Part shown: piece by piece, positions 22,850 to 33,991 of the stretch | How positions within the stretch are numbered: the first letter of the stretch is position 1 | Layout of the letters: every line of letters begins with the position of its first letter | From: an uncultured Flavihumibacter sp. | Lineage (GTDB): Bacteria > Bacteroidota > Bacteroidia > Chitinophagales > Chitinophagaceae | Length of the DNA stretch: 64,000 nucleotides | Direction of reading: 5' to 3' | Assembly (NCBI GenBank): GCA_902168105.1 | Contig: CABHOY010000052.1 | Coordinates: 987 to 64,986 of the forward strand | Position numbers and translations under genes: made by a program | The notes under the pieces: model-generated | What the model saw: only the letters and a program-made list of their open reading frames with translations | Databases searched by the model: none | Told to the model about the DNA's origin: nothing

Positions 22850-23665
22850 TTATTCGGTAATGATCTCACATTTAACTTTTGCGCCGGATTCTACTTTCTT
22901 TGCAATGTCAGCGCCTCCTTCTTTAACAATACATACGGAGAAGTTCTCGTCTTCCACTTTCGCCACGGCAATCTTACCTAAAGTCTTCTTTCTGTGCATT
23001 TTCTTGCCGTCTACGGTCAGATCGGTTATTTCGTATACTCTGAACTCATCGTGTTCTTTCACCCCGGCTAAACTGCCCGCAACCAGCAATACGCGGATCG
23101 CGTCTCCACTGCTGCTTTTTTCTTCTATCTGCGCAATGGAAACTGCACTTTTCAGGTTATCGTGTATGAACTTGTCGATCTCAGGCTCCAGTCCTTTCAG
23201 TGCATCTTCAAACGCGGTCTTTCCCCTGCCGGCGCCGGTAAATCTGTTGGACGCGATCTCTTCACCACTGGTCACATCGACAACAGTAAGATCAAACAAC
23301 AGGTCAGATACATTGGTATTGGTGATCCCTAAGGGGAGATTGGACGGTTTTGTTTCTACACTGGCTTTCAATACATTACCGGTTATGATATACTGTGCGC
23401 CTAAAGACTTCGCCTGTGCCAGGGCCCCTGCATCGGGATTAGCCTGTCCTACTCCTGTCTTGATCTGCTCCAGCTTGTTCTTCTCCATCAAAGAAAACCC
23501 TCTCAGTCTCAGGGTAGCATCGTATACTGCGTCCTCTATGGCCGATACATGTTCAGTACCACCAGCGCTTTTAAAAGGTGCTACACCGATCAGGTTCTTG
23601 TTTTGAGCGAAAGCAGATGAGAAAGCAACAATGCCGCATAAAACGGATAATACTCTTTTTGTCAT
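22850..23665 (-). CDS. Secreted CsgG/TolB-N-like fold protein with FlgT-C-like C-terminal domain
   Basis: Signal peptide; IGVAPF...LMEKNKLEQI...LGAQYIITGNV pattern of CsgG/HfaB-like domains; C-terminal GVKEHDEFRVY...GKIAVAKV. Confidence 0.6.
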   Translation of the reverse strand: MTKRVLSVLCGIVAFSSAFAQNKNLIGVAPFKSAGGTEHVSAIEDAVYDATLRLRGFSLMEKNKLEQIKTGVGQANPDAGALAQAKSLGAQYIITGNVLKASVETKPSNLPLGITNTNVSDLLFDLTVVDVTSGEEIASNRFTGAGRGKTAFEDALKGLEPEIDKFIHDNLKSAVSIAQIEEKSSSGDAIRVLLVAGSLAGVKEHDEFRVYEITDLTVDGKKMHRKKTLGKIAVAKVEDENFSVCIVKEGGADIAKKVESGAKVKCEIITE

Positions 23666-23743: not shown

Positions 23744-26700
23744 CTAATTGGCTGGCTGGTCCTGCTTTACAGGTAGAATAATGTTAAACGTCGCGCCCTC
23801 TTTTTCCCGGCTATGGGCAGTGATCAGGCCATTATGTTTATCAATGATCTTCCGGGTGACGGCCAGACCGATGCCGGTACCTTCATATTGGTCTTTCGTA
23901 TGCAAACGCTGAAAGAGCACAAATATTTTATCCAGGTACTTTTCGTCAAAGCCTATCCCATTGTCTGTGATAGAGATACATACAAACGGGCCATCGGGAT
24001 CTGTCTCACTGCCAAACTTTTTCTCCTTCAGGCGTGTAGCGGTAATGTTTATAATGGGCTGGACCTCCTTGCCGGAAAACTTAAACGCATTGCTTAACAG
24101 GTTTTGGAACACCTGTCTTAACTGTCCGGGTACGGCTTCTATCGCCGGCATAGGGCTGACAGTAACTTTTGCGTTCTTTTCATGGATAAGTATTTCAAGA
24201 TCTGAGAGTATTTCCTTTATGATCACTTCCAGGTTCACCTGCTCAAAGAAACTGGCCTGTGATAGACGGGAGAACCGCAGCAGGTCATTGATCAGGTTCG
24301 TCATACGGGAAGAGGAATTAATAATGCGGGTCAGATAATCCACCGCCTTATCTTCCATGTTATCCTGATAACGTTCCTTCAGCATATTCCCGAACATATG
24401 GATCTTTCGGAGCGGTTCTTTCAGGTCGTGCGAGGCGACAAACGCATATTGCTGCAATTCGGCATTACTTGCTTCCAGCTCCTGGTTAGCCCTTTGCAAA
24501 GCAAGTGTGCGTTCCTGGATACGTTGCTCCATGATCTCCGCCGCCATCTTCTGCTCATTGATATCGGTACTGGTACCTACCAGCACACTGGACATGCCGT
24601 CCATATCCTTTTGCACCCGGGTCCTGTGCAGGAACCAGTCATATCTTCCTTCCAGATGCCTGATACGTAATTCCATTGCAAAGTCCAGCTTACCCTTTAC
24701 CGCATGCCGCCAGTTTTCTTCCCAACCCGCGATATCGTCCTTGTGGATCACACTCTGCCACCCTTCCTGTTGCAACTCGTGCAATGACTTGCCGGTATAC
24801 ATAATAAACTGCTCATTGACGAAGTTGACAATCCCTTTCGGGTCCGCCGTCCATAATATGAGCGGCATTGATTCTGCCAGAAAGCGTTTTTCCTCACGGT
24901 TCACGGCTGCCAGTTCCTCCGCATGACGCAGGGTTGTAACGTCCATCATAGACCCCAGCATACGGTAAGGTGTCGCATATTCATCAAGCATCAGGTAACC
25001 ACGGTCCAGTACATGCGCATAGGTGCCATCGGCACGGCGCAATCTGTACCCTTCCGACCACTGACTTTGTTTATTGTTCACAGCCCTTGTGATACTGTTC
25101 CTCACCCGCTCGCGGTCATCAGGATGGATGTTCTCCACCCAGAAAGTACGGCTTCCCGTTTCTTCTCCGGCATGACCATATACTGCGGTAAAGTTATCAC
25201 TCCACCAAACGGTATTCCTGGCAAGGTTCCAATCCCAGACAGTGTCGTTCGTAGCTTTGGACACCAGACGGAAACGTTCTTCGCTCATCGTCAGTTCCCG
25301 TGTTCTTTCCAGTACCTTATGTTCCAGGCCTACATTCAGATTGCGCAGGCTTTCCCTTGCCTGTACCAGTTCATTATAATTACGGCGCAGGCGGTCCTCT
25401 CCATCTTTCTTTTCACTCACATCTATACAGGTGATCACGAGATTACCATCCTGTGTTTTTACACCCAGCATCTCATACCAGTAATCCTGCTCCTTACGCG
25501 TTATATGGAACTCTGTGCGCAACACCGAGCCATGAGTAAACACCTGCGCATATTTTGCGAACAGCCCTTGCTCGAGCAATTCGGGGAAGGTCTGTCTGAT
25601 AGAAGGATGCTCTGCCAATACCACCTCTTTCCCCAGGAAACGCAGCCCTTCACTATTGGCTGCCAGCAACCTGAAATCGGTCATCGCACCTTCGTCATTG
25701 AACACCGGCTTCAATGCCAGTATCACATTCGTGCTGGCATTAAATACTCCCTTCAGCAACATGTCCAGCTCTTTGATAGCTGTAATATCCACAAAGGTGA
25801 TCACCACACCGTCAGTCTGTTTGTCCTGACGGATGTATGGCAGTACCTTCATCAGATACATATTGCCATTACTCAGCACCATCTCTTTCTCCAACGTCTT
25901 CTTATGACTGATCACCGAATGAATATCGTCGATCATGCTGTCCTGCTGGATATTTGTAGAAATATGATTGATAGGGCGTCCTATGTCTGAGGGTATCAGG
26001 TTGATCATGTTTACTGCAGCCGGATTGAACTTGCGGATCCGGAGGTTGGTATCAACAAATACCTGCCCGATGTCCGTACTACGGAAGTAGTTGTCCATAT
26101 CGTCATTCAGTTCCACCAATTCCTTGATCTTCAGCTGATGTTCAGTATTCAGGGTATGCAGTTCCTCATTCAGTGATTGCAGCTCCTCATTACTGGATTG
26201 CAGTTCCTCATTCGCAGAAAGTAATTCCTCATTACTGGACTGTAATTCCTCGTTAGAGGTTTCCAACCCTTCGATGGCCATCTGGAGATTGGTACGGGTT
26301 TCTCCCAGCTCCGCCTCCAGCGACATAATATGTTCCTTTACATCTGCCGGTTGATCATGTGTGTCGGGAGCGTCTCCGGGTATGATCACTTTATCAGGCT
26401 CCTCATTAAATACGATCATGGTGTACTGGCCATTACCGTTTCCGGTACCCGGTCTTATCAACAGGTTGACCAACCTTAACCCCGCCGGCGTATTCATTTT
26501 CACGCCTTTCACCATTGCTTTCTTTTCAGTAGCCCATGCCTGCCTCAACGCGATGTTCAGCGCCATAGACAGATCACCCGGCACCATCTTCAACAGGTTC
26601 AGGTGCAACTTCTTTTCCGGCAGTGAGAGATAGTTTTTATAACTGCCTATCGCTTCCTGGATCTCATATGCTTTATCAATATAAACGGCTGCAAAGCCAA

Positions 26701-28246
26701 AGTCTTCCGCCATCACATCCCGGAATTCTTCCAGGAGGTTATTCAATTTCTTATCTGCAAGACGGCTGTTACCGTTACTGCGCATTTCACGCGTCTGCCG
26801 GATATATTCCAGCGGACTGTAAAGATTGTCGGGCAGTGAACTACGTGTAGTATCTGTTTTCCGGTAGATCTTCCATTTCGAATGCACCTCTTCCAGTCCT
26901 GCACGTATCAGTGAAGCAGATTCACTGGGACCTAGAAAAAGGCATCCGCCGGTATTTAATGCAAAATGAAGGGACGACAATACCTGCCGTTGTAACACAT
27001 GCTCCATATATATGAGCATGTTGCGGCAGGTAACGAGATCGTTCTTTATAAAGGGAGGATCTTTTAAAATATTATGACGTGCAAATACGATCAGCTTCCG
27101 CAGGCGCGGCGCGATCTGGTATTTCTTCTCTTCTTTAAGAAAATACTTCTTCAGTAACAGCGGATCTATATCTTTCACAACACCTGAAGGATAGATACCC
27201 CTGGCCGCAAACTCAATCGCATTACTGTCTATATCAGTAGCAAAGATCTTCACATCCAGCCACTTGTTCTTTTCCTGTAAGCACTGGTCAATCAACATGG
27301 CCAGCGTATAGGCTTCCTCTCCCGTACTACAGGCGGTGACCCAGATCTTCAGAATAGCACCTTCCTCCTTCTCATCAACCAGCTTGCTGATCACATGGTC
27401 CTTCAAATACTGGAAGGCCGATTTATCCCTGAAAAAACGGGTTACGCCGATCAGGAAATCCTTCGCCAGCGCTTTACTTTCCTCTTCACTCTGCCGCAGC
27501 AATTGCAGATATTCTTCAAGGCTCTTTATATTGAACTGCGCCATCCGTTTGGCTATGCGCCGCGTAATGGTTGGAGGTTTGTAGTGGTTGAAATCCTGGC
27601 CGCTATGCTCCCTTACAAGCTGAAAGACCTCCGCAAGCATCTCTTCATCGATCTTCCCGTTAAACACCTGTACAGGCATGTCCTGGATGTAATTATATAT
27701 TTCCGCCGGCATAAATTCCGGTGCCAGTACATAGTCTACATTTTCAGTACCGATCAGGCTGCGGGGCATCCCGTCAAACTTAGCGGTTTCCGGGTCCTGC
27801 ACCATTACCATTCCACCTGCTTTTTTAATAGCGGCTGCGCCTCTTGTTCCATCAGTACCGGTACCCGAAAGGATGATACAGATGGCAGCGCTGCCTTTAT
27901 CTTTTGCAAGTGAAAAAAGGAAGGTATCAATAGCCGTATTAGGCGCCTTCTCGGTAGGTTTCTGTACCAACCGCAGACGTCCCTGCTCTATGATAATTTC
28001 TTTATTATTGGGAATAACGTATACGCAATCAATCTCCACTCCCATATCCTGCTCGACCTCCCTGACCTGCATATTAGTGTGCTTGGATACAAGCTCCACC
28101 AGCAAGCTTTTATAGTCGGGGGACAAGTGCTGAATAATGACAAAGGATAAATTGCCATATTCCGGCATATTATCAAAGAATTCATGGATGGCTTCCAGTC
28201 CACCCGCAGAGGCTCCTATCGCTACTATGTAGTTCGCTTTCTTCAT
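23744..28246 (-). CDS. CheB methylesterase-CheR methyltransferase-coiled coil-multi-PAS-histidine kinase fusion
   Basis: CheB triad intact (GASAGG, IIQHL, GTDG); CheR IGVTRFFRD, WVTACSTGEEAY, IFATDID, CRNMLIY; NEEL heptads; several PAS/PAC; H-box ASHDLKEPLR, N-box QVFQNLLSNAFKF, DNGIG and GTGIGL. Confidence 0.93.
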   Translation of the reverse strand: MKKANYIVAIGASAGGLEAIHEFFDNMPEYGNLSFVIIQHLSPDYKSLLVELVSKHTNMQVREVEQDMGVEIDCVYVIPNNKEIIIEQGRLRLVQKPTEKAPNTAIDTFLFSLAKDKGSAAICIILSGTGTDGTRGAAAIKKAGGMVMVQDPETAKFDGMPRSLIGTENVDYVLAPEFMPAEIYNYIQDMPVQVFNGKIDEEMLAEVFQLVREHSGQDFNHYKPPTITRRIAKRMAQFNIKSLEEYLQLLRQSEEESKALAKDFLIGVTRFFRDKSAFQYLKDHVISKLVDEKEEGAILKIWVTACSTGEEAYTLAMLIDQCLQEKNKWLDVKIFATDIDSNAIEFAARGIYPSGVVKDIDPLLLKKYFLKEEKKYQIAPRLRKLIVFARHNILKDPPFIKNDLVTCRNMLIYMEHVLQRQVLSSLHFALNTGGCLFLGPSESASLIRAGLEEVHSKWKIYRKTDTTRSSLPDNLYSPLEYIRQTREMRSNGNSRLADKKLNNLLEEFRDVMAEDFGFAAVYIDKAYEIQEAIGSYKNYLSLPEKKLHLNLLKMVPGDLSMALNIALRQAWATEKKAMVKGVKMNTPAGLRLVNLLIRPGTGNGNGQYTMIVFNEEPDKVIIPGDAPDTHDQPADVKEHIMSLEAELGETRTNLQMAIEGLETSNEELQSSNEELLSANEELQSSNEELQSLNEELHTLNTEHQLKIKELVELNDDMDNYFRSTDIGQVFVDTNLRIRKFNPAAVNMINLIPSDIGRPINHISTNIQQDSMIDDIHSVISHKKTLEKEMVLSNGNMYLMKVLPYIRQDKQTDGVVITFVDITAIKELDMLLKGVFNASTNVILALKPVFNDEGAMTDFRLLAANSEGLRFLGKEVVLAEHPSIRQTFPELLEQGLFAKYAQVFTHGSVLRTEFHITRKEQDYWYEMLGVKTQDGNLVITCIDVSEKKDGEDRLRRNYNELVQARESLRNLNVGLEHKVLERTRELTMSEERFRLVSKATNDTVWDWNLARNTVWWSDNFTAVYGHAGEETGSRTFWVENIHPDDRERVRNSITRAVNNKQSQWSEGYRLRRADGTYAHVLDRGYLMLDEYATPYRMLGSMMDVTTLRHAEELAAVNREEKRFLAESMPLILWTADPKGIVNFVNEQFIMYTGKSLHELQQEGWQSVIHKDDIAGWEENWRHAVKGKLDFAMELRIRHLEGRYDWFLHRTRVQKDMDGMSSVLVGTSTDINEQKMAAEIMEQRIQERTLALQRANQELEASNAELQQYAFVASHDLKEPLRKIHMFGNMLKERYQDNMEDKAVDYLTRIINSSSRMTNLINDLLRFSRLSQASFFEQVNLEVIIKEILSDLEILIHEKNAKVTVSPMPAIEAVPGQLRQVFQNLLSNAFKFSGKEVQPIINITATRLKEKKFGSETDPDGPFVCISITDNGIGFDEKYLDKIFVLFQRLHTKDQYEGTGIGLAVTRKIIDKHNGLITAHSREKEGATFNIILPVKQDQPAN
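26158..26262 (-). repeat. 21-nt coding tandem repeat giving five (S/A/L)NEEL heptads
   Basis: SNEELQS SNEELLS ANEELQS SNEELQS LNEELHT; ttcctcatt/ttcctcgtt recurs every 21 nt. Confidence 0.85.
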
Positions 28247-28297
28247 TCAATTGTTAACAAATAACCATTTTCATACCAATTTGTACCGTTGCTGGTT

Positions 28298-29821
28298 TCA
28301 GGCCAGTCCCTTCACAATGTATTCCAGAATAAAGTTCCTGAGATGTGAAGCCATAAGCATTTCAGTCTGCTGCCAGGGCAGGGCGGTGTGACGCACGGTT
28401 TGCTGCCAGATGCTGAATGAGTTCCGGGGATGGTACTGAATATTATCTTTTTCAAACTGTACGGCTTCATTAGGATTACCACCCCAATTCACTTCCCTTA
28501 TCACTTCAGGGCGAAAGGCAATAAGGTATTCACCCTTGATCGGTTGTACAGGTATGACCAATATACCACTGGCCAGTTGTGCATATTGGATGGCGGGTTC
28601 ATAAACACCAGGAAGATGCAGCTCCTGCGATACCTGATTGGACTGAGCGCTTTGCAGCCACAGGAACAGGTCTTTCAGGGCGTTCCTGTCGGGCGTCTTA
28701 CCAATGGTTTCCAGGCGCTTGTTATACATCATGGCCACACCCGAAGCATTCAGTAACTGTAGCACATTCACTTCATTACCCAGTAATCCCTGTATCAGAT
28801 CTCCTGCTGTATACACTTGTTCCACCAACCTGGCATGCACCTCATGCAGCTTCGTATGCTCATCCCCTTCTTCCTTATAGTACAGTGACACGATACGCGC
28901 GGCAATGATGTCTGACAACAATTCAAACAATGCCCTGCCCTCATATGGCAGTTGGTATGCGGTGCGATGGTGACAGGAGAACAGGCCCCACAACTGTCCG
29001 TCTTTCAGGATACGACAGGACATAGAAGTCATGATATTCATGTTCTTCATATATTCCAGATGCACGGCCGGCACACTCCGCAGGTTACAGCCTGAAAGAT
29101 CCGTAAAGGCATTGGTCAACGGATTGATAACAGGATACAGGCTAACTGGCACGTAATCCCTGTTGGGGATCATACGGTACGGATTGTGCAGATACATCGC
29201 TCTAGCCTGCCGGGGGATGTCAGATGCCGGGAAAGTTAGTCCGAGGTAGGACTCCATGCCCGGCTCCTGTTCTTCTGCAACAACGGTACCGTTCCAGTCT
29301 TTATCGAATTGGTAAACCATCACCTTGTCATAACCTGACAAAGCCTTCAGTTGCCTGGCCGCTGCCTTACAGGCCTCCGTAATGGTAGGCGCTGCATTGA
29401 TGGCGGCCATAGCATATTTCAGTCGCTGATAGATGCTGATAAACGAGTTCTCCTTCTGCTGTTCTCCCGGCGGCTCTATTTCGAGCAGCATAGACTCCCC
29501 TGACAGGTGTATCACGGCCAGGTAATCTTTCCGGCTAGCGCTGGTAGAAACGGTAAGCGTAAAAGGTAATTTATCTACTAGTCCCTCTTCCAGCTTTTGC
29601 CGCAGTTCTTCCATCTGTGTAGCAGGAATATAATCGGAGAGAGATGTGTCCACCACTTCTGCAGGTGGCAGCCCTAATGCGGCTGAAATATTTTCACTAA
29701 CCTGGAAGATCTTGTAGTCGGTTTTTCTGATGACCAGTAAAAAGCCATAAGGCTGAATGAGATTAATCTGATGCAATGGCACACTCCCACAGAAGGCAGC
29801 GTCAAAATTCTGGTTTTGCAT
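28298..29821 (-). CDS. bphP: Bacteriophytochrome photosensory core only (PAS2-GAF-PHY), no output domain
   Basis: N-terminal Cys11 in FCGSVPLHQINLIQPYG (BV-binding position of BphPs); PASDIP, LRSV..VHLEYM, LWGLFSCHH, tongue WGG...PRNSF; ends just after the PHY helix. Confidence 0.92.
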   Translation of the reverse strand: MQNQNFDAAFCGSVPLHQINLIQPYGFLLVIRKTDYKIFQVSENISAALGLPPAEVVDTSLSDYIPATQMEELRQKLEEGLVDKLPFTLTVSTSASRKDYLAVIHLSGESMLLEIEPPGEQQKENSFISIYQRLKYAMAAINAAPTITEACKAAARQLKALSGYDKVMVYQFDKDWNGTVVAEEQEPGMESYLGLTFPASDIPRQARAMYLHNPYRMIPNRDYVPVSLYPVINPLTNAFTDLSGCNLRSVPAVHLEYMKNMNIMTSMSCRILKDGQLWGLFSCHHRTAYQLPYEGRALFELLSDIIAARIVSLYYKEEGDEHTKLHEVHARLVEQVYTAGDLIQGLLGNEVNVLQLLNASGVAMMYNKRLETIGKTPDRNALKDLFLWLQSAQSNQVSQELHLPGVYEPAIQYAQLASGILVIPVQPIKGEYLIAFRPEVIREVNWGGNPNEAVQFEKDNIQYHPRNSFSIWQQTVRHTALPWQQTEMLMASHLRNFILEYIVKGLA

Positions 29822-29845: not shown

Positions 29846-30424
29846 TTACTGCAGGTCCTGTTGCCGTACTGCCCACGATTTGAATTTTAAGAACGTATCG
29901 GCAGCAGCGTCCAGCATTCGTTGCCGTTGTTCTTCACTGCCATTGTATCCCTGAAGGTAGTGCACAAATGTGTCCCAGTAAGATTGAGTATCAGTTCCAT
30001 ATCCGTTGAAAAAGGTCAGCGACTTTGATAATTCAGGAACGGTCAGATTGCGTATCAGTATCTGGCTGATCACCTGTCCGCCCAATGTAGACCCTTCCAG
30101 TACATACATCACGCCCAGGGCCTGTGCCGCATCGGCGATCTCCGGCAGGTCTGTGCTCGTGGCAGGCGGGGTTGCATGCGCACCACTGATAGCGGAAATG
30201 TCGTCAAGTAAAAGAGCAGCCTTCCTCCGTCGTTCAAATCCCCCAGGGAATGAGATATCCATATGAGCAGCAATATGCTGCTCCAGCGGATAATAAAATC
30301 CGTAGAACAGTTCTAATAACCTGACATATTTTTCAGGCGTATTCACATTCTTAATAATGGGGATAAGTACACGTTCCAGCTCCTGGTGCTGTTTGCCCGT
30401 ACGCTCCCTTAACAATTCTATCAT
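29846..30424 (-). CDS. bphO: Biliverdin-producing heme oxygenase
   Basis: LRERTGKQHQELE proximal His and YVLEGSTLGG motif; 24 nt upstream of bphP. Confidence 0.92.
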   Translation of the reverse strand: MIELLRERTGKQHQELERVLIPIIKNVNTPEKYVRLLELFYGFYYPLEQHIAAHMDISFPGGFERRRKAALLLDDISAISGAHATPPATSTDLPEIADAAQALGVMYVLEGSTLGGQVISQILIRNLTVPELSKSLTFFNGYGTDTQSYWDTFVHYLQGYNGSEEQRQRMLDAAADTFLKFKSWAVRQQDLQ

Positions 30425-30500: not shown

Positions 30501-30950
30501 CTACGGTAGTTGTACCACTGTAAACCAGTAAGTATGCAGCATGCGGGTAAACGCCACCAGATCTGAAAAGTTGGCCGGTTTGATGGTGTAGCTATTAACG
30601 CCCAGCTCATAACATTTTGATATATCCTTTGCTTCCGTGGAGGTGGTCAGGATAATAATGGGTAACCATTTTAGGTTGGCATGTTCTTTTATCTCCCGCA
30701 AAGCTTCTCGTCCGTCTTTACGGGGCATATTCAGGTCCAGCAATATGATACTGGGGAAAGGAAACTTTTCTTCATCTGCATATTTTCCCTGCCTGTTCAG
30801 ATAAAACATCAATTCTTCTCCATTCTCCACAAAACGCAATTCAATGTCAGCACCACTTTCCTCAAATGCCACCTTAATGAGTTCCCTGTCGTCTGCGTCG
30901 TCATCTGCCACAAGTATACATTTCCTGTTACGTAGCACCTTTTTGATCAT
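30501..30950 (-). CDS. Single-domain response regulator, Rcp1/BphR type
   Basis: ADDD acidic pocket, IILLDLNMPRKDGRE, IIILTTS, YTIKP and C-terminal YWFTVVQLP, matching the Rcp1-type phytochrome RR pattern. Confidence 0.9.
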   Translation of the reverse strand: MIKKVLRNRKCILVADDDADDRELIKVAFEESGADIELRFVENGEELMFYLNRQGKYADEEKFPFPSIILLDLNMPRKDGREALREIKEHANLKWLPIIILTTSTEAKDISKCYELGVNSYTIKPANFSDLVAFTRMLHTYWFTVVQLP

Positions 30951-32959: not shown

Positions 32960-33991
32960 CTATTTGCCGGCTGACTTCACCAGCTTGTATTCAATAACAG
33001 GGTACCCTCTTGTGCCGCCATCGTTCAGTCCCATGCTGACAAATTTCAACTTATAGTAGTTGCCATTGGCGTCTTTTACGATATAGTAGAAGTTCTTGAA
33101 GATACCGTTACCTGTAGTAGCTCTCCAACTGCTACCGATCGCGTCTCGGGTAGATACAAAAGTCTGTGCGGCAATATTTGCCTCCGTAAAATTGTTGTAG
33201 CTCACCACAGCGCTGTCTACTTTCGCAGCAGTTACTCCTGCATACTGATTGATCACCACTAAGTCAGAGAAGAAATAAGGGATCGTCTGCGTGTAATAAG
33301 CTCCATAAGACCAGGCGATGTCCCATTCTGCTTTCTTAGGTTCAACATTTACTGTGTTACTGTTGTCCAGTGAGAAGAAAGTAAAATTGTAACTATTGTC
33401 TTTGCTGATATTAGCAGTTTTGATGGTCGTTTCTTTCAGCTTTGCATACTTCAAAGTATAACCATCGCCATTGCGTGTAACGAGGATCTTATACCAGGTA
33501 GCAGGGTCCGCGACGGATGCATTCTCAGGTTTTACCAGGTATACATGATTGGCGGTCGCTGTAGCAGATACTTCGTCAATCACAGTTTTAGTCAGATCGC
33601 CAAATACATCATCGATCATGCTCAGTGTACCTGCGCCCTGACCAATTGCCATACTAATACCTGCAGTATCGTCAATGTTCACTGCACTGATATCTGTCTT
33701 ACTCAGCTCCACTGCGCTCATAGCAGTAAAACCATTGAGTATGACACGGAACGAAGCGCCTCCATAGAAGCCGAGCGACCAGCTGGCACGTGCTCTTGTT
33801 GCGGTAGAGTCGGAGCTGAAGTCTACGTAAACGGTATTAGGGGAACCAGTACCACCACCGCCGTTCAGCGTTAGCTGAGAACCATCTGAAGGAGGTATCA
33901 CTACGGTGGGATCTTCGTCTTTACTACATGCACTGAATAATCCCGTTCCTATAGCAAGTACGAAGAAAAGTCTGCTGAATTTCATAGCCAT
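32960..33991 (-). CDS. hmuY: HmuY-family heme-binding lipoprotein
   Basis: LFSAC lipobox; NTVYVDFS, WDIAW and YIVKDANGNYYKLKF HmuY motifs; directly downstream of a TBDR. Confidence 0.85.
   Translation of the reverse strand: MAMKFSRLFFVLAIGTGLFSACSKDEDPTVVIPPSDGSQLTLNGGGGTGSPNTVYVDFSSDSTATRARASWSLGFYGGASFRVILNGFTAMSAVELSKTDISAVNIDDTAGISMAIGQGAGTLSMIDDVFGDLTKTVIDEVSATATANHVYLVKPENASVADPATWYKILVTRNGDGYTLKYAKLKETTIKTANISKDNSYNFTFFSLDNSNTVNVEPKKAEWDIAWSYGAYYTQTIPYFFSDLVVINQYAGVTAAKVDSAVVSYNNFTEANIAAQTFVSTRDAIGSSWRATTGNGIFKNFYYIVKDANGNYYKLKFVSMGLNDGGTRGYPVIEYKLVKSAGK

Follow-up and report, generated by a model that had tools for sequence, protein, structure and literature searches.

A stand-alone PAS-GAF-PHY bacteriophytochrome encoded beside a separate CheB-CheR-PAS histidine kinase in Bacteroidota

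The stretch of DNA analyzed here, referred to below as the window, comprises 64,000 nucleotides from an uncultured Flavihumibacter sp. and carries, on its reverse strand, a string of genes for a response regulator, a heme oxygenase, a short bacteriophytochrome and a large histidine kinase. The genes and their features, in the 5′ to 3′ order of the reverse strand, are:

30501-30950, reverse strand: Rcp1-type, phytochrome-associated single-domain response regulator, 149 aa, first gene of the string (Pfam Response_reg)
29846-30424, reverse strand: heme oxygenase BphO, 192 aa (Pfam Heme_oxygenase, 4e-19)
28298-29821, reverse strand: output-less bacteriophytochrome, 507 aa (open reading frame and Pfam)
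29789-29791, reverse strand: Cys11 of the phytochrome (read from the sequence)
29471-29785, reverse strand: PAS_2 domain, aa 13-117 (Pfam, 64.6 bits against a cut-off of 21.4)
28892-29380, reverse strand: GAF domain, aa 148-310 (Pfam, 41.6 bits against a cut-off of 22.4)
29213-29230, reverse strand: PASDIP motif (read from the sequence)
29060-29062, reverse strand: His254 of VHLEY (read from the sequence)
28316-28846, reverse strand: PHY domain, aa 326-502 (Pfam, 158.1 bits against a cut-off of 27)
28478-28486, reverse strand: WGG of the PHY tongue (read from the sequence)
28415-28429, reverse strand: PRNSF of the PHY tongue (read from the sequence)
aa 485-506 of the phytochrome: C-terminal helix
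28247-28297, reverse strand: spacer of 51 nt in the same frame, with two further TGA stops (sequence read directly)
23744-28246, reverse strand: CheB-CheR-PAS histidine kinase, 1500 aa (Pfam)
26147-26269, reverse strand: Glu-Glu heptad coiled coil between CheR and PAS_10 (kinase ortholog alignment)
24428-24430, reverse strand: phospho-acceptor His1273 of the kinase

The reading frame at 28298-29821 is not a chance one, because its 507-aa product matches a solved phytochrome photosensory module over residues 7-503 with E = 5.8e-108; alignments with solved photosensory modules are full-length, with E between 1e-108 and 1e-67. The original prediction described the protein as a photosensory core only, and not as a fusion broken by one stop. 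This agrees with the Pfam result, in which PAS_2, GAF and PHY are the only domains of the sensor and neither HisKA nor HATPase is found, and with orthologs that are equally short. The NCBIfam equivalog profile for BphP (NF041576) scores 318.3 bits, below its curated cut-off of 1040, and is matched at positions 7-506 of 622 only. No other protein of the source genome carries a PHY domain. The chromophore determinants that had been named as present (Cys11, PASDIP, His254, WGG and PRNSF) were all located by direct reading. The residue preceding His254 is a valine and the Cph1-type GAF cysteine is absent, so that biliverdin at Cys11 is the expected chromophore; an N-terminal cysteine for biliverdin is shared with the DrBphP-type bacteriophytochromes.

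The AlphaFold2 model of the sensor (pLDDT = 87.1) is a canonical photosensory module with a β-hairpin tongue and a C-terminal helix of 22 residues. In Foldseek it superposes best on photosensory modules in the Pr state (TM 0.85-0.9), which is a weak hint of a Pr dark state. The end of the protein had been placed ~20 aa after the tongue, which is too close: the chain extends 38 aa past PRNSF and ~31 aa past the last tongue strand of the model.

A strain-specific truncation, for which ortholog lengths had been proposed as the check, is ruled out by orthologs that are uniformly short. In a collection of 5.8 billion proteins the best 120 homologs, ranging from 91% to 48% identity, measure 491-516 aa save for four shorter partial sequences, and across three orders the length stays at ~491-516 aa down to about 41% identity. 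Their sources include several Chitinophaga species, Paraflavitalea, Segetibacter, Mucilaginibacter, Hufsiella and Rubrolithibacter. All of the 52 aligned orthologs stop a few residues past the conserved LRNFILEY helix, and all of them share C11, Y170, F197-P203, R216, R248, H254, Y257, S266, S268, H284, W446, G448 and P465-F469. Judging from this alignment, purifying selection acts on all photochemical residues. The short form is almost certainly the native architecture. Other Chitinophagaceae have either the short type (49% and 42% identity) or ordinary phytochromes of 733-755 aa (~30% identity), and in a phylum sample of 401 genomes, 23 of which contain a phytochrome, the short type occurs in only two of the 23.

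When read in frame, the junction between sensor and kinase runs, after ...KGLA, through TGA, NQQRYKLV, TGA, KWLFVNN and TGA to the kinase ATG at 28246, in accordance with the earlier description of a 51-nt spacer in the same frame with two extra in-frame stops. The sensor stop and both in-frame stops of the spacer are TGA (window positions 28247-28300). No terminator-like hairpin is seen in the spacer, and scans for consensus promoters and terminators gave nothing over the shuffled background. Among 21 orthologous junctions the relative frame is 0 in five, 1 in nine and 2 in seven, the gaps range from -20 to +67 nt (49 nt in C. agri), and the sensor stop codon is mostly TAA. Since the junctions use all three frames, the same-frame layout in the window is a coincidence and programmed readthrough is excluded; the survey equally rules out a frameshift into the kinase. 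The run of TGA stops is likewise taken as a coincidence, given that the orthologs mostly use TAA and other frames. The argument that a single nonsense mutation or simple readthrough cannot account for the split is therefore sound, and it follows more firmly from the junction comparison than from the two extra stops.

Upstream of the sensor, the 149-aa regulator belongs to the phytochrome-associated single-domain subfamily typified by the Cph1/Rcp1 system. Its ten best matches among solved structures are all phytochrome response regulators (7e-31 to 4e-17), among them RphyB (7e-31), Rcp1 (8e-29), RcpA, RcpB and the DrBphP partner, and the next class follows at ~1e-11. C. agri and C. sancti have this gene in the corresponding position. 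BphO is the presumed supplier of biliverdin, and a heme oxygenase lies directly upstream of the short phytochrome in eight of the 24 loci read. An HmuY-family heme-binding lipoprotein is encoded at 32960-33991 on the reverse strand, a few kb upstream of the heme oxygenase and phytochrome string; the HmuY region is also found upstream in C. agri and C. sancti (L105/L106), together with a TonB-dependent receptor, and these neighbors may represent a heme-supply link or only a conserved neighborhood of the genus. At the other end of the string, 78 nt downstream of the kinase and on the same strand, a gene at 22850-23665 encodes a 271-aa secreted protein with a signal peptide, to which no Pfam or NCBIfam family could be assigned above cut-off. 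Genes for proteins of 271 aa and 269 aa occupy the same place in C. agri and C. sancti, respectively.

The domain order of the kinase according to Pfam is CheB methylesterase (without a receiver domain), CheR_N, CheR, PAS_10, PAS_3, PAS, HisKA and HATPase. Both the CheR and the CheB part have matches among solved structures of these enzymes, and the motifs GASAGG, QHL and GTDG, which are predicted to be catalytic, can be read from the sequence. With CheB_methylest, CheR_N, CheR, PAS_10, HisKA and HATPase in one protein, it belongs to the CheB/CheR-fused PAS kinases. Like other CheB/CheR-PAS kinases of Bacteroidota and other phyla, often annotated as "histidine kinase with CheB and CheR activity," it combines CheB, CheR, PAS_10, a NEEL coiled coil, PAS and histidine kinase. 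It is the only fused CheB-CheR protein in the source genome, the other four CheB domains being stand-alone. The Glu-Glu (NEEL) heptads are nearly invariant in 22 orthologous kinases and also occur in a paralog without a phytochrome; they are a possible substrate of the kinase's own CheR and CheB domains.

In all 24 loci read, such a kinase (1350-1670 aa, CheB-CheR-PAS_10-PAS-HK) is encoded directly downstream of the short phytochrome and on the same strand. These loci span Chitinophagales, Sphingobacteriales and Cytophagales: 17 are in genomes or MAGs of Mucilaginibacter, Pedobacter, Pontibacter, Flavipsychrobacter, Puia and unclassified Bacteroidota, and the remaining seven are in three Chitinophagaceae, one large metagenomic genome, C. 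agri, C. sancti and the window. Across the partner loci, identity to the window proteins is 58-65% for CheB, 43-59% for CheR, 41-47% for the sensor and 22-58% for the kinase (HK) core. The low values of the core are those of Sphingobacteriaceae and Pontibacter (L015, L017, L018, L020-L027, L038 and L066), where it is 22-30% identical as compared with 43-65% for CheB-CheR-PAS_10, and where the output end of the kinase has evidently been exchanged.

A tree of 108 photosensory modules places all 40 short forms in one clade (SH-aLRT 100, stem 0.68). This clade is distinct from the ~750-aa (733-755 aa) full-length phytochromes that other Bacteroidota carry; its neighbors in the tree are cyanobacterial, planctomycete and Chloroflexota sequences, none of which is resolved as its sister. 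In a search without a length filter, longer proteins also fall inside this clade: P0218 (885 aa, sensor-PAS-HK) is basal, P0242 lies near the base, and P0211 (1077 aa), P0214 (903 aa) and P0225 (771 aa) are nested among the short forms. P0211 joins the sensor to PAS-PAS-HK. Over 544 aa, its residues 535-1077 share 52% identity with residues 954-1496 of the window kinase, and the same part of P0211 is 69% identical to the kinase of the split sister P0095. The two loci (L098, 5829-9062, and the split L100, 8001-14060) are syntenic, with NDH2, a gene for ~170 aa, a methyltransferase and a heme oxygenase shared upstream, and the linker of P0211, roughly residues 505-545, is non-homologous, of low complexity and scar-like. 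P0211 thus looks like a deletion product in which CheB-CheR-PAS_10 was lost and the sensor came to be joined to PAS-PAS-HK. As a singleton it could be a recent one, and together with L100 it amounts to a natural deletion experiment in which the methylation module was removed. In P0214 and P0225 the sensor is joined to the same kinase core through normal-looking helices, with aligned identities of 45-53% and 41%, respectively, and P0225 was found in five assemblies.

A single split event is ruled out by the AU test, which rejects all short forms as one exclusive clade with p = 5e-84, a value that applies to a group named after the tree had been seen and that is partly driven by P0211 and P0095. 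The split and fused states have thus interchanged several times, always with the same kinase. A search for surface residues that would set the split forms apart gave none: all seven clade-specific positions are shared with the fused forms inside the clade. Three phytochromes outside the clade (L102, L103 and L104) also consist of PAS-GAF-PHY only and have other neighbors, namely PAS-GGDEF-EAL and PAS-HK genes, each in convergent orientation, and a heme oxygenase gene downstream; phytochromes without an output domain have arisen more than once. The best explanation for the gene in the window is a complete stand-alone PAS-GAF-PHY core, with sensor and kinase as separate polypeptides, in an old clade of Bacteroidota.

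Paralogs bear on the origin of the kinase. When its core was compared with solved structures, phytochrome kinases ranked second to fifth (2e-30 to 1e-25), ahead of HK853. The core is 44% identical to that of a CheR-PAS-HK paralog of the source genome, which has no phytochrome, and 35-40% identical to those of cyanobacterial phytochromes, so this type of core appears not to be exclusive to phytochromes. A chimera that captured the PAS-HK part of an ancestral phytochrome was considered and is not supported, since the core of the non-phytochrome paralog is closer than those of the outgroup phytochromes; the basal fused members P0218 and P0242 were not ranked among the matches to the core. As the core type is also present in a non-phytochrome paralog, we do not derive the kinase end from an ancestral phytochrome. 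The second system of the source genome (L107, G000:C13:3431-8087) consists of a stand-alone CheB (222 aa) followed by the CheR-PAS-HK protein (1328 aa), with no sensor gene upstream or nearby, and the generalization that CheB/CheR kinases have an upstream sensor gene fails for it. Paralogous CheB/CheR-PAS kinases are present in 13 of the 61 genomes of the family, and only the subfamily with at least 51% identity is linked to a phytochrome. In one genome (L094, G030:C164:2151-7022), a CheB-CheR kinase of 1623 aa is 55% identical over the first 700 aa, and there is no phytochrome upstream of it or elsewhere in that genome. The kinase can thus exist without the sensor; either the sensor was lost in this genome, or the kinase is independent of it.

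The locus resembles those of canonical BphP kinases (DrBphP, Agp1 and PaBphP, and the Cph1/Rcp1 pair) in its PAS_2-GAF-PHY sensor, adjoining heme oxygenase and Rcp1-type regulator. It differs from them in that the sensor polypeptide lacks HisKA and HATPase, and the kinase, with CheB and CheR at its N-terminus, forms a 1500-aa protein of its own. The sensor is accordingly not a type 1 phytochrome sensor histidine kinase, and the same holds for all split orthologs. The locus may best be read as a split two-component system composed of heme oxygenase, trans-acting sensor, CheB-CheR kinase and Rcp1-like response regulator. Signaling would take place by protein-protein contact, and the CheB-CheR kinase is named as the candidate partner because it lies directly downstream in 24 of 24 loci and because natural fusions join the sensor to its C-terminal part. 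On the strength of these in-clade "Rosetta stone" fusions, sensor and kinase are expected to act in one pathway. In the proposed mechanism, the neighboring heme oxygenase would produce biliverdin, which would bind Cys11; upon red/far-red photoconversion the PHY tongue would refold and the short C-terminal helix would move; the sensor would then alter in trans the activity of the presumably co-transcribed CheB-CheR-PAS-histidine kinase, and the kinase would phosphorylate the Rcp1-like regulator. That the sensor signals to the adjacent kinase is, in our judgment, probable. We count against this reading the kinase without a phytochrome in G030, the kinase core of only 22-30% identity in Sphingobacteriaceae and Pontibacter, the lack of surface residues specific to the split forms, the singleton status and scar-like linker of P0211, and a heme oxygenase that adjoins the phytochrome in only eight of 24 loci.

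The alternative that survives best is that the sensor regulates the CheB/CheR part and not the kinase core directly, so that kinase output changes only as a consequence; light would then control how far the Glu-Glu coiled coil is methylated or deamidated, or else the substrate would be the sensor itself. It draws on the same comparisons: CheB is the best conserved part of the partner, the heptads are nearly invariant, and some lineages have replaced the kinase core but retained CheB-CheR-PAS_10. However, P0211, P0214 and P0225 drop CheB-CheR and join the sensor to PAS-HK, which points to the kinase end as the target that matters, and CheB/CheR-PAS kinases with the same coiled coil exist without phytochromes. 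We regard this alternative as unlikely. A more speculative idea concerns the cassette as a whole, which might be a light receptor that is put together like a chemoreceptor but from separate pieces. The phytochrome core would serve as a ligand-binding domain in trans, and CheR and CheB of the kinase would add methyl groups to its invariant Glu-Glu heptads and remove them, so that the output would be adjusted to the background and would signal changes in red/far-red light rather than its absolute level. This is a tentative proposal, which we regard as unlikely. If true, it would represent methylation-based sensory adaptation outside chemotaxis, in bacteria without flagella.

Alternatively, the sensor could target the response regulator directly, or a partner encoded elsewhere, for instance a transcription factor, and its linkage to the kinase would reflect co-expression only. 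There is precedent in RpBphP1 of Rhodopseudomonas palustris, which signals by binding the repressor PpsR2 (PMC6899989), and the short phytochromes outside the clade adjoin PAS-HK and PAS-GGDEF-EAL genes. The likeness to RpBphP1-PpsR2 is that the light signal is proposed to leave the phytochrome by non-covalent contact, with no enzymatic domain in cis. RpBphP1, however, keeps a PAS9/HOS output module that makes the contact with the repressor, whereas the sensor described here stops past the PHY helix and has a kinase, not a repressor, as its candidate partner. Adjacency to the kinase in all 24 loci of three orders, with genes that overlap or nearly touch, and the natural fusions to the same kinase make this alternative quite improbable.

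A third possibility is that the protein senses bilin or heme status, or simply binds biliverdin, and is tied to heme uptake and not to light. It would fit the HmuY and TonB-receptor genes a few kb upstream in the window and in two Chitinophaga species, but WGG, PRxSF and all photoconversion residues are invariant across the clade, a constraint that plain bilin binding does not need, and we give this possibility very little credence. The least credible explanation, and to us a negligible one, is that a full-length phytochrome kinase has decayed or been truncated in this strain, or that stop readthrough or a frameshift extends the sensor into the kinase: the shared frame and the three TGA stops of the window would suit it, but the orthologs are all about 500 aa long, their junctions fall in frame 0, 1 or 2 with mostly TAA stops (and the 49-nt gap in C. 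agri), and no sensor-CheB-CheR fusion exists among the 90 matches of 1113-3542 aa, the outputs of which are HK, GGDEF/EAL or fungal-type.

Signaling from a stand-alone sensor to the adjacent kinase, the reading we prefer, has parallels outside the phytochromes. Stand-alone sensors encoded beside the enzyme they control include H-NOX with HnoK and short LOV or BLUF proteins, for example in the PixD-PixE pair. The arrangement is alike in that a sensor-only protein and a separate signaling enzyme share one operon, with regulation in trans, and it is unlike in sensor fold and cofactor; to our knowledge, no partner of an H-NOX, short LOV or BLUF protein carries CheB/CheR domains. The sensor also matches engineered PAS-GAF-PHY constructs and near-infrared tools in length and domain boundary (480-520 residues in solved chains). 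The suggestion that it could be a compact natural scaffold for such tools is for this reason weak, its size being that of laboratory-truncated photosensory modules. Unlike those constructs, it is a natural gene product with a boundary kept by selection and, presumably, with a binding partner in nature. What could make it useful is not compact size but, if it proves real, a naturally occurring pair of sensor and partner that depends on light. We found no description of output-less Bacteroidota phytochromes, or of a link between phytochromes and CheB/CheR, in the open-access literature; an earlier one may exist elsewhere.

Current models of phytochrome signaling depend on a rigid helical connection from PHY to the output domain. 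Here that connection is naturally cut, and the cut has long been kept, so that the signal must cross a protein-protein interface. If the proposed pairing is true, it would offer a clean way to identify the part of the photosensory core by which the signal is passed on, and it could supply a genetically encoded pair that heterodimerizes in response to red/far-red light. It would also provide the first testable physiological input for the large and uncharacterized family of CheB/CheR-PAS kinases, and it would mean that soil and rhizosphere Bacteroidota such as Chitinophaga, Mucilaginibacter, Pedobacter and Pontibacter sense red/far-red light.
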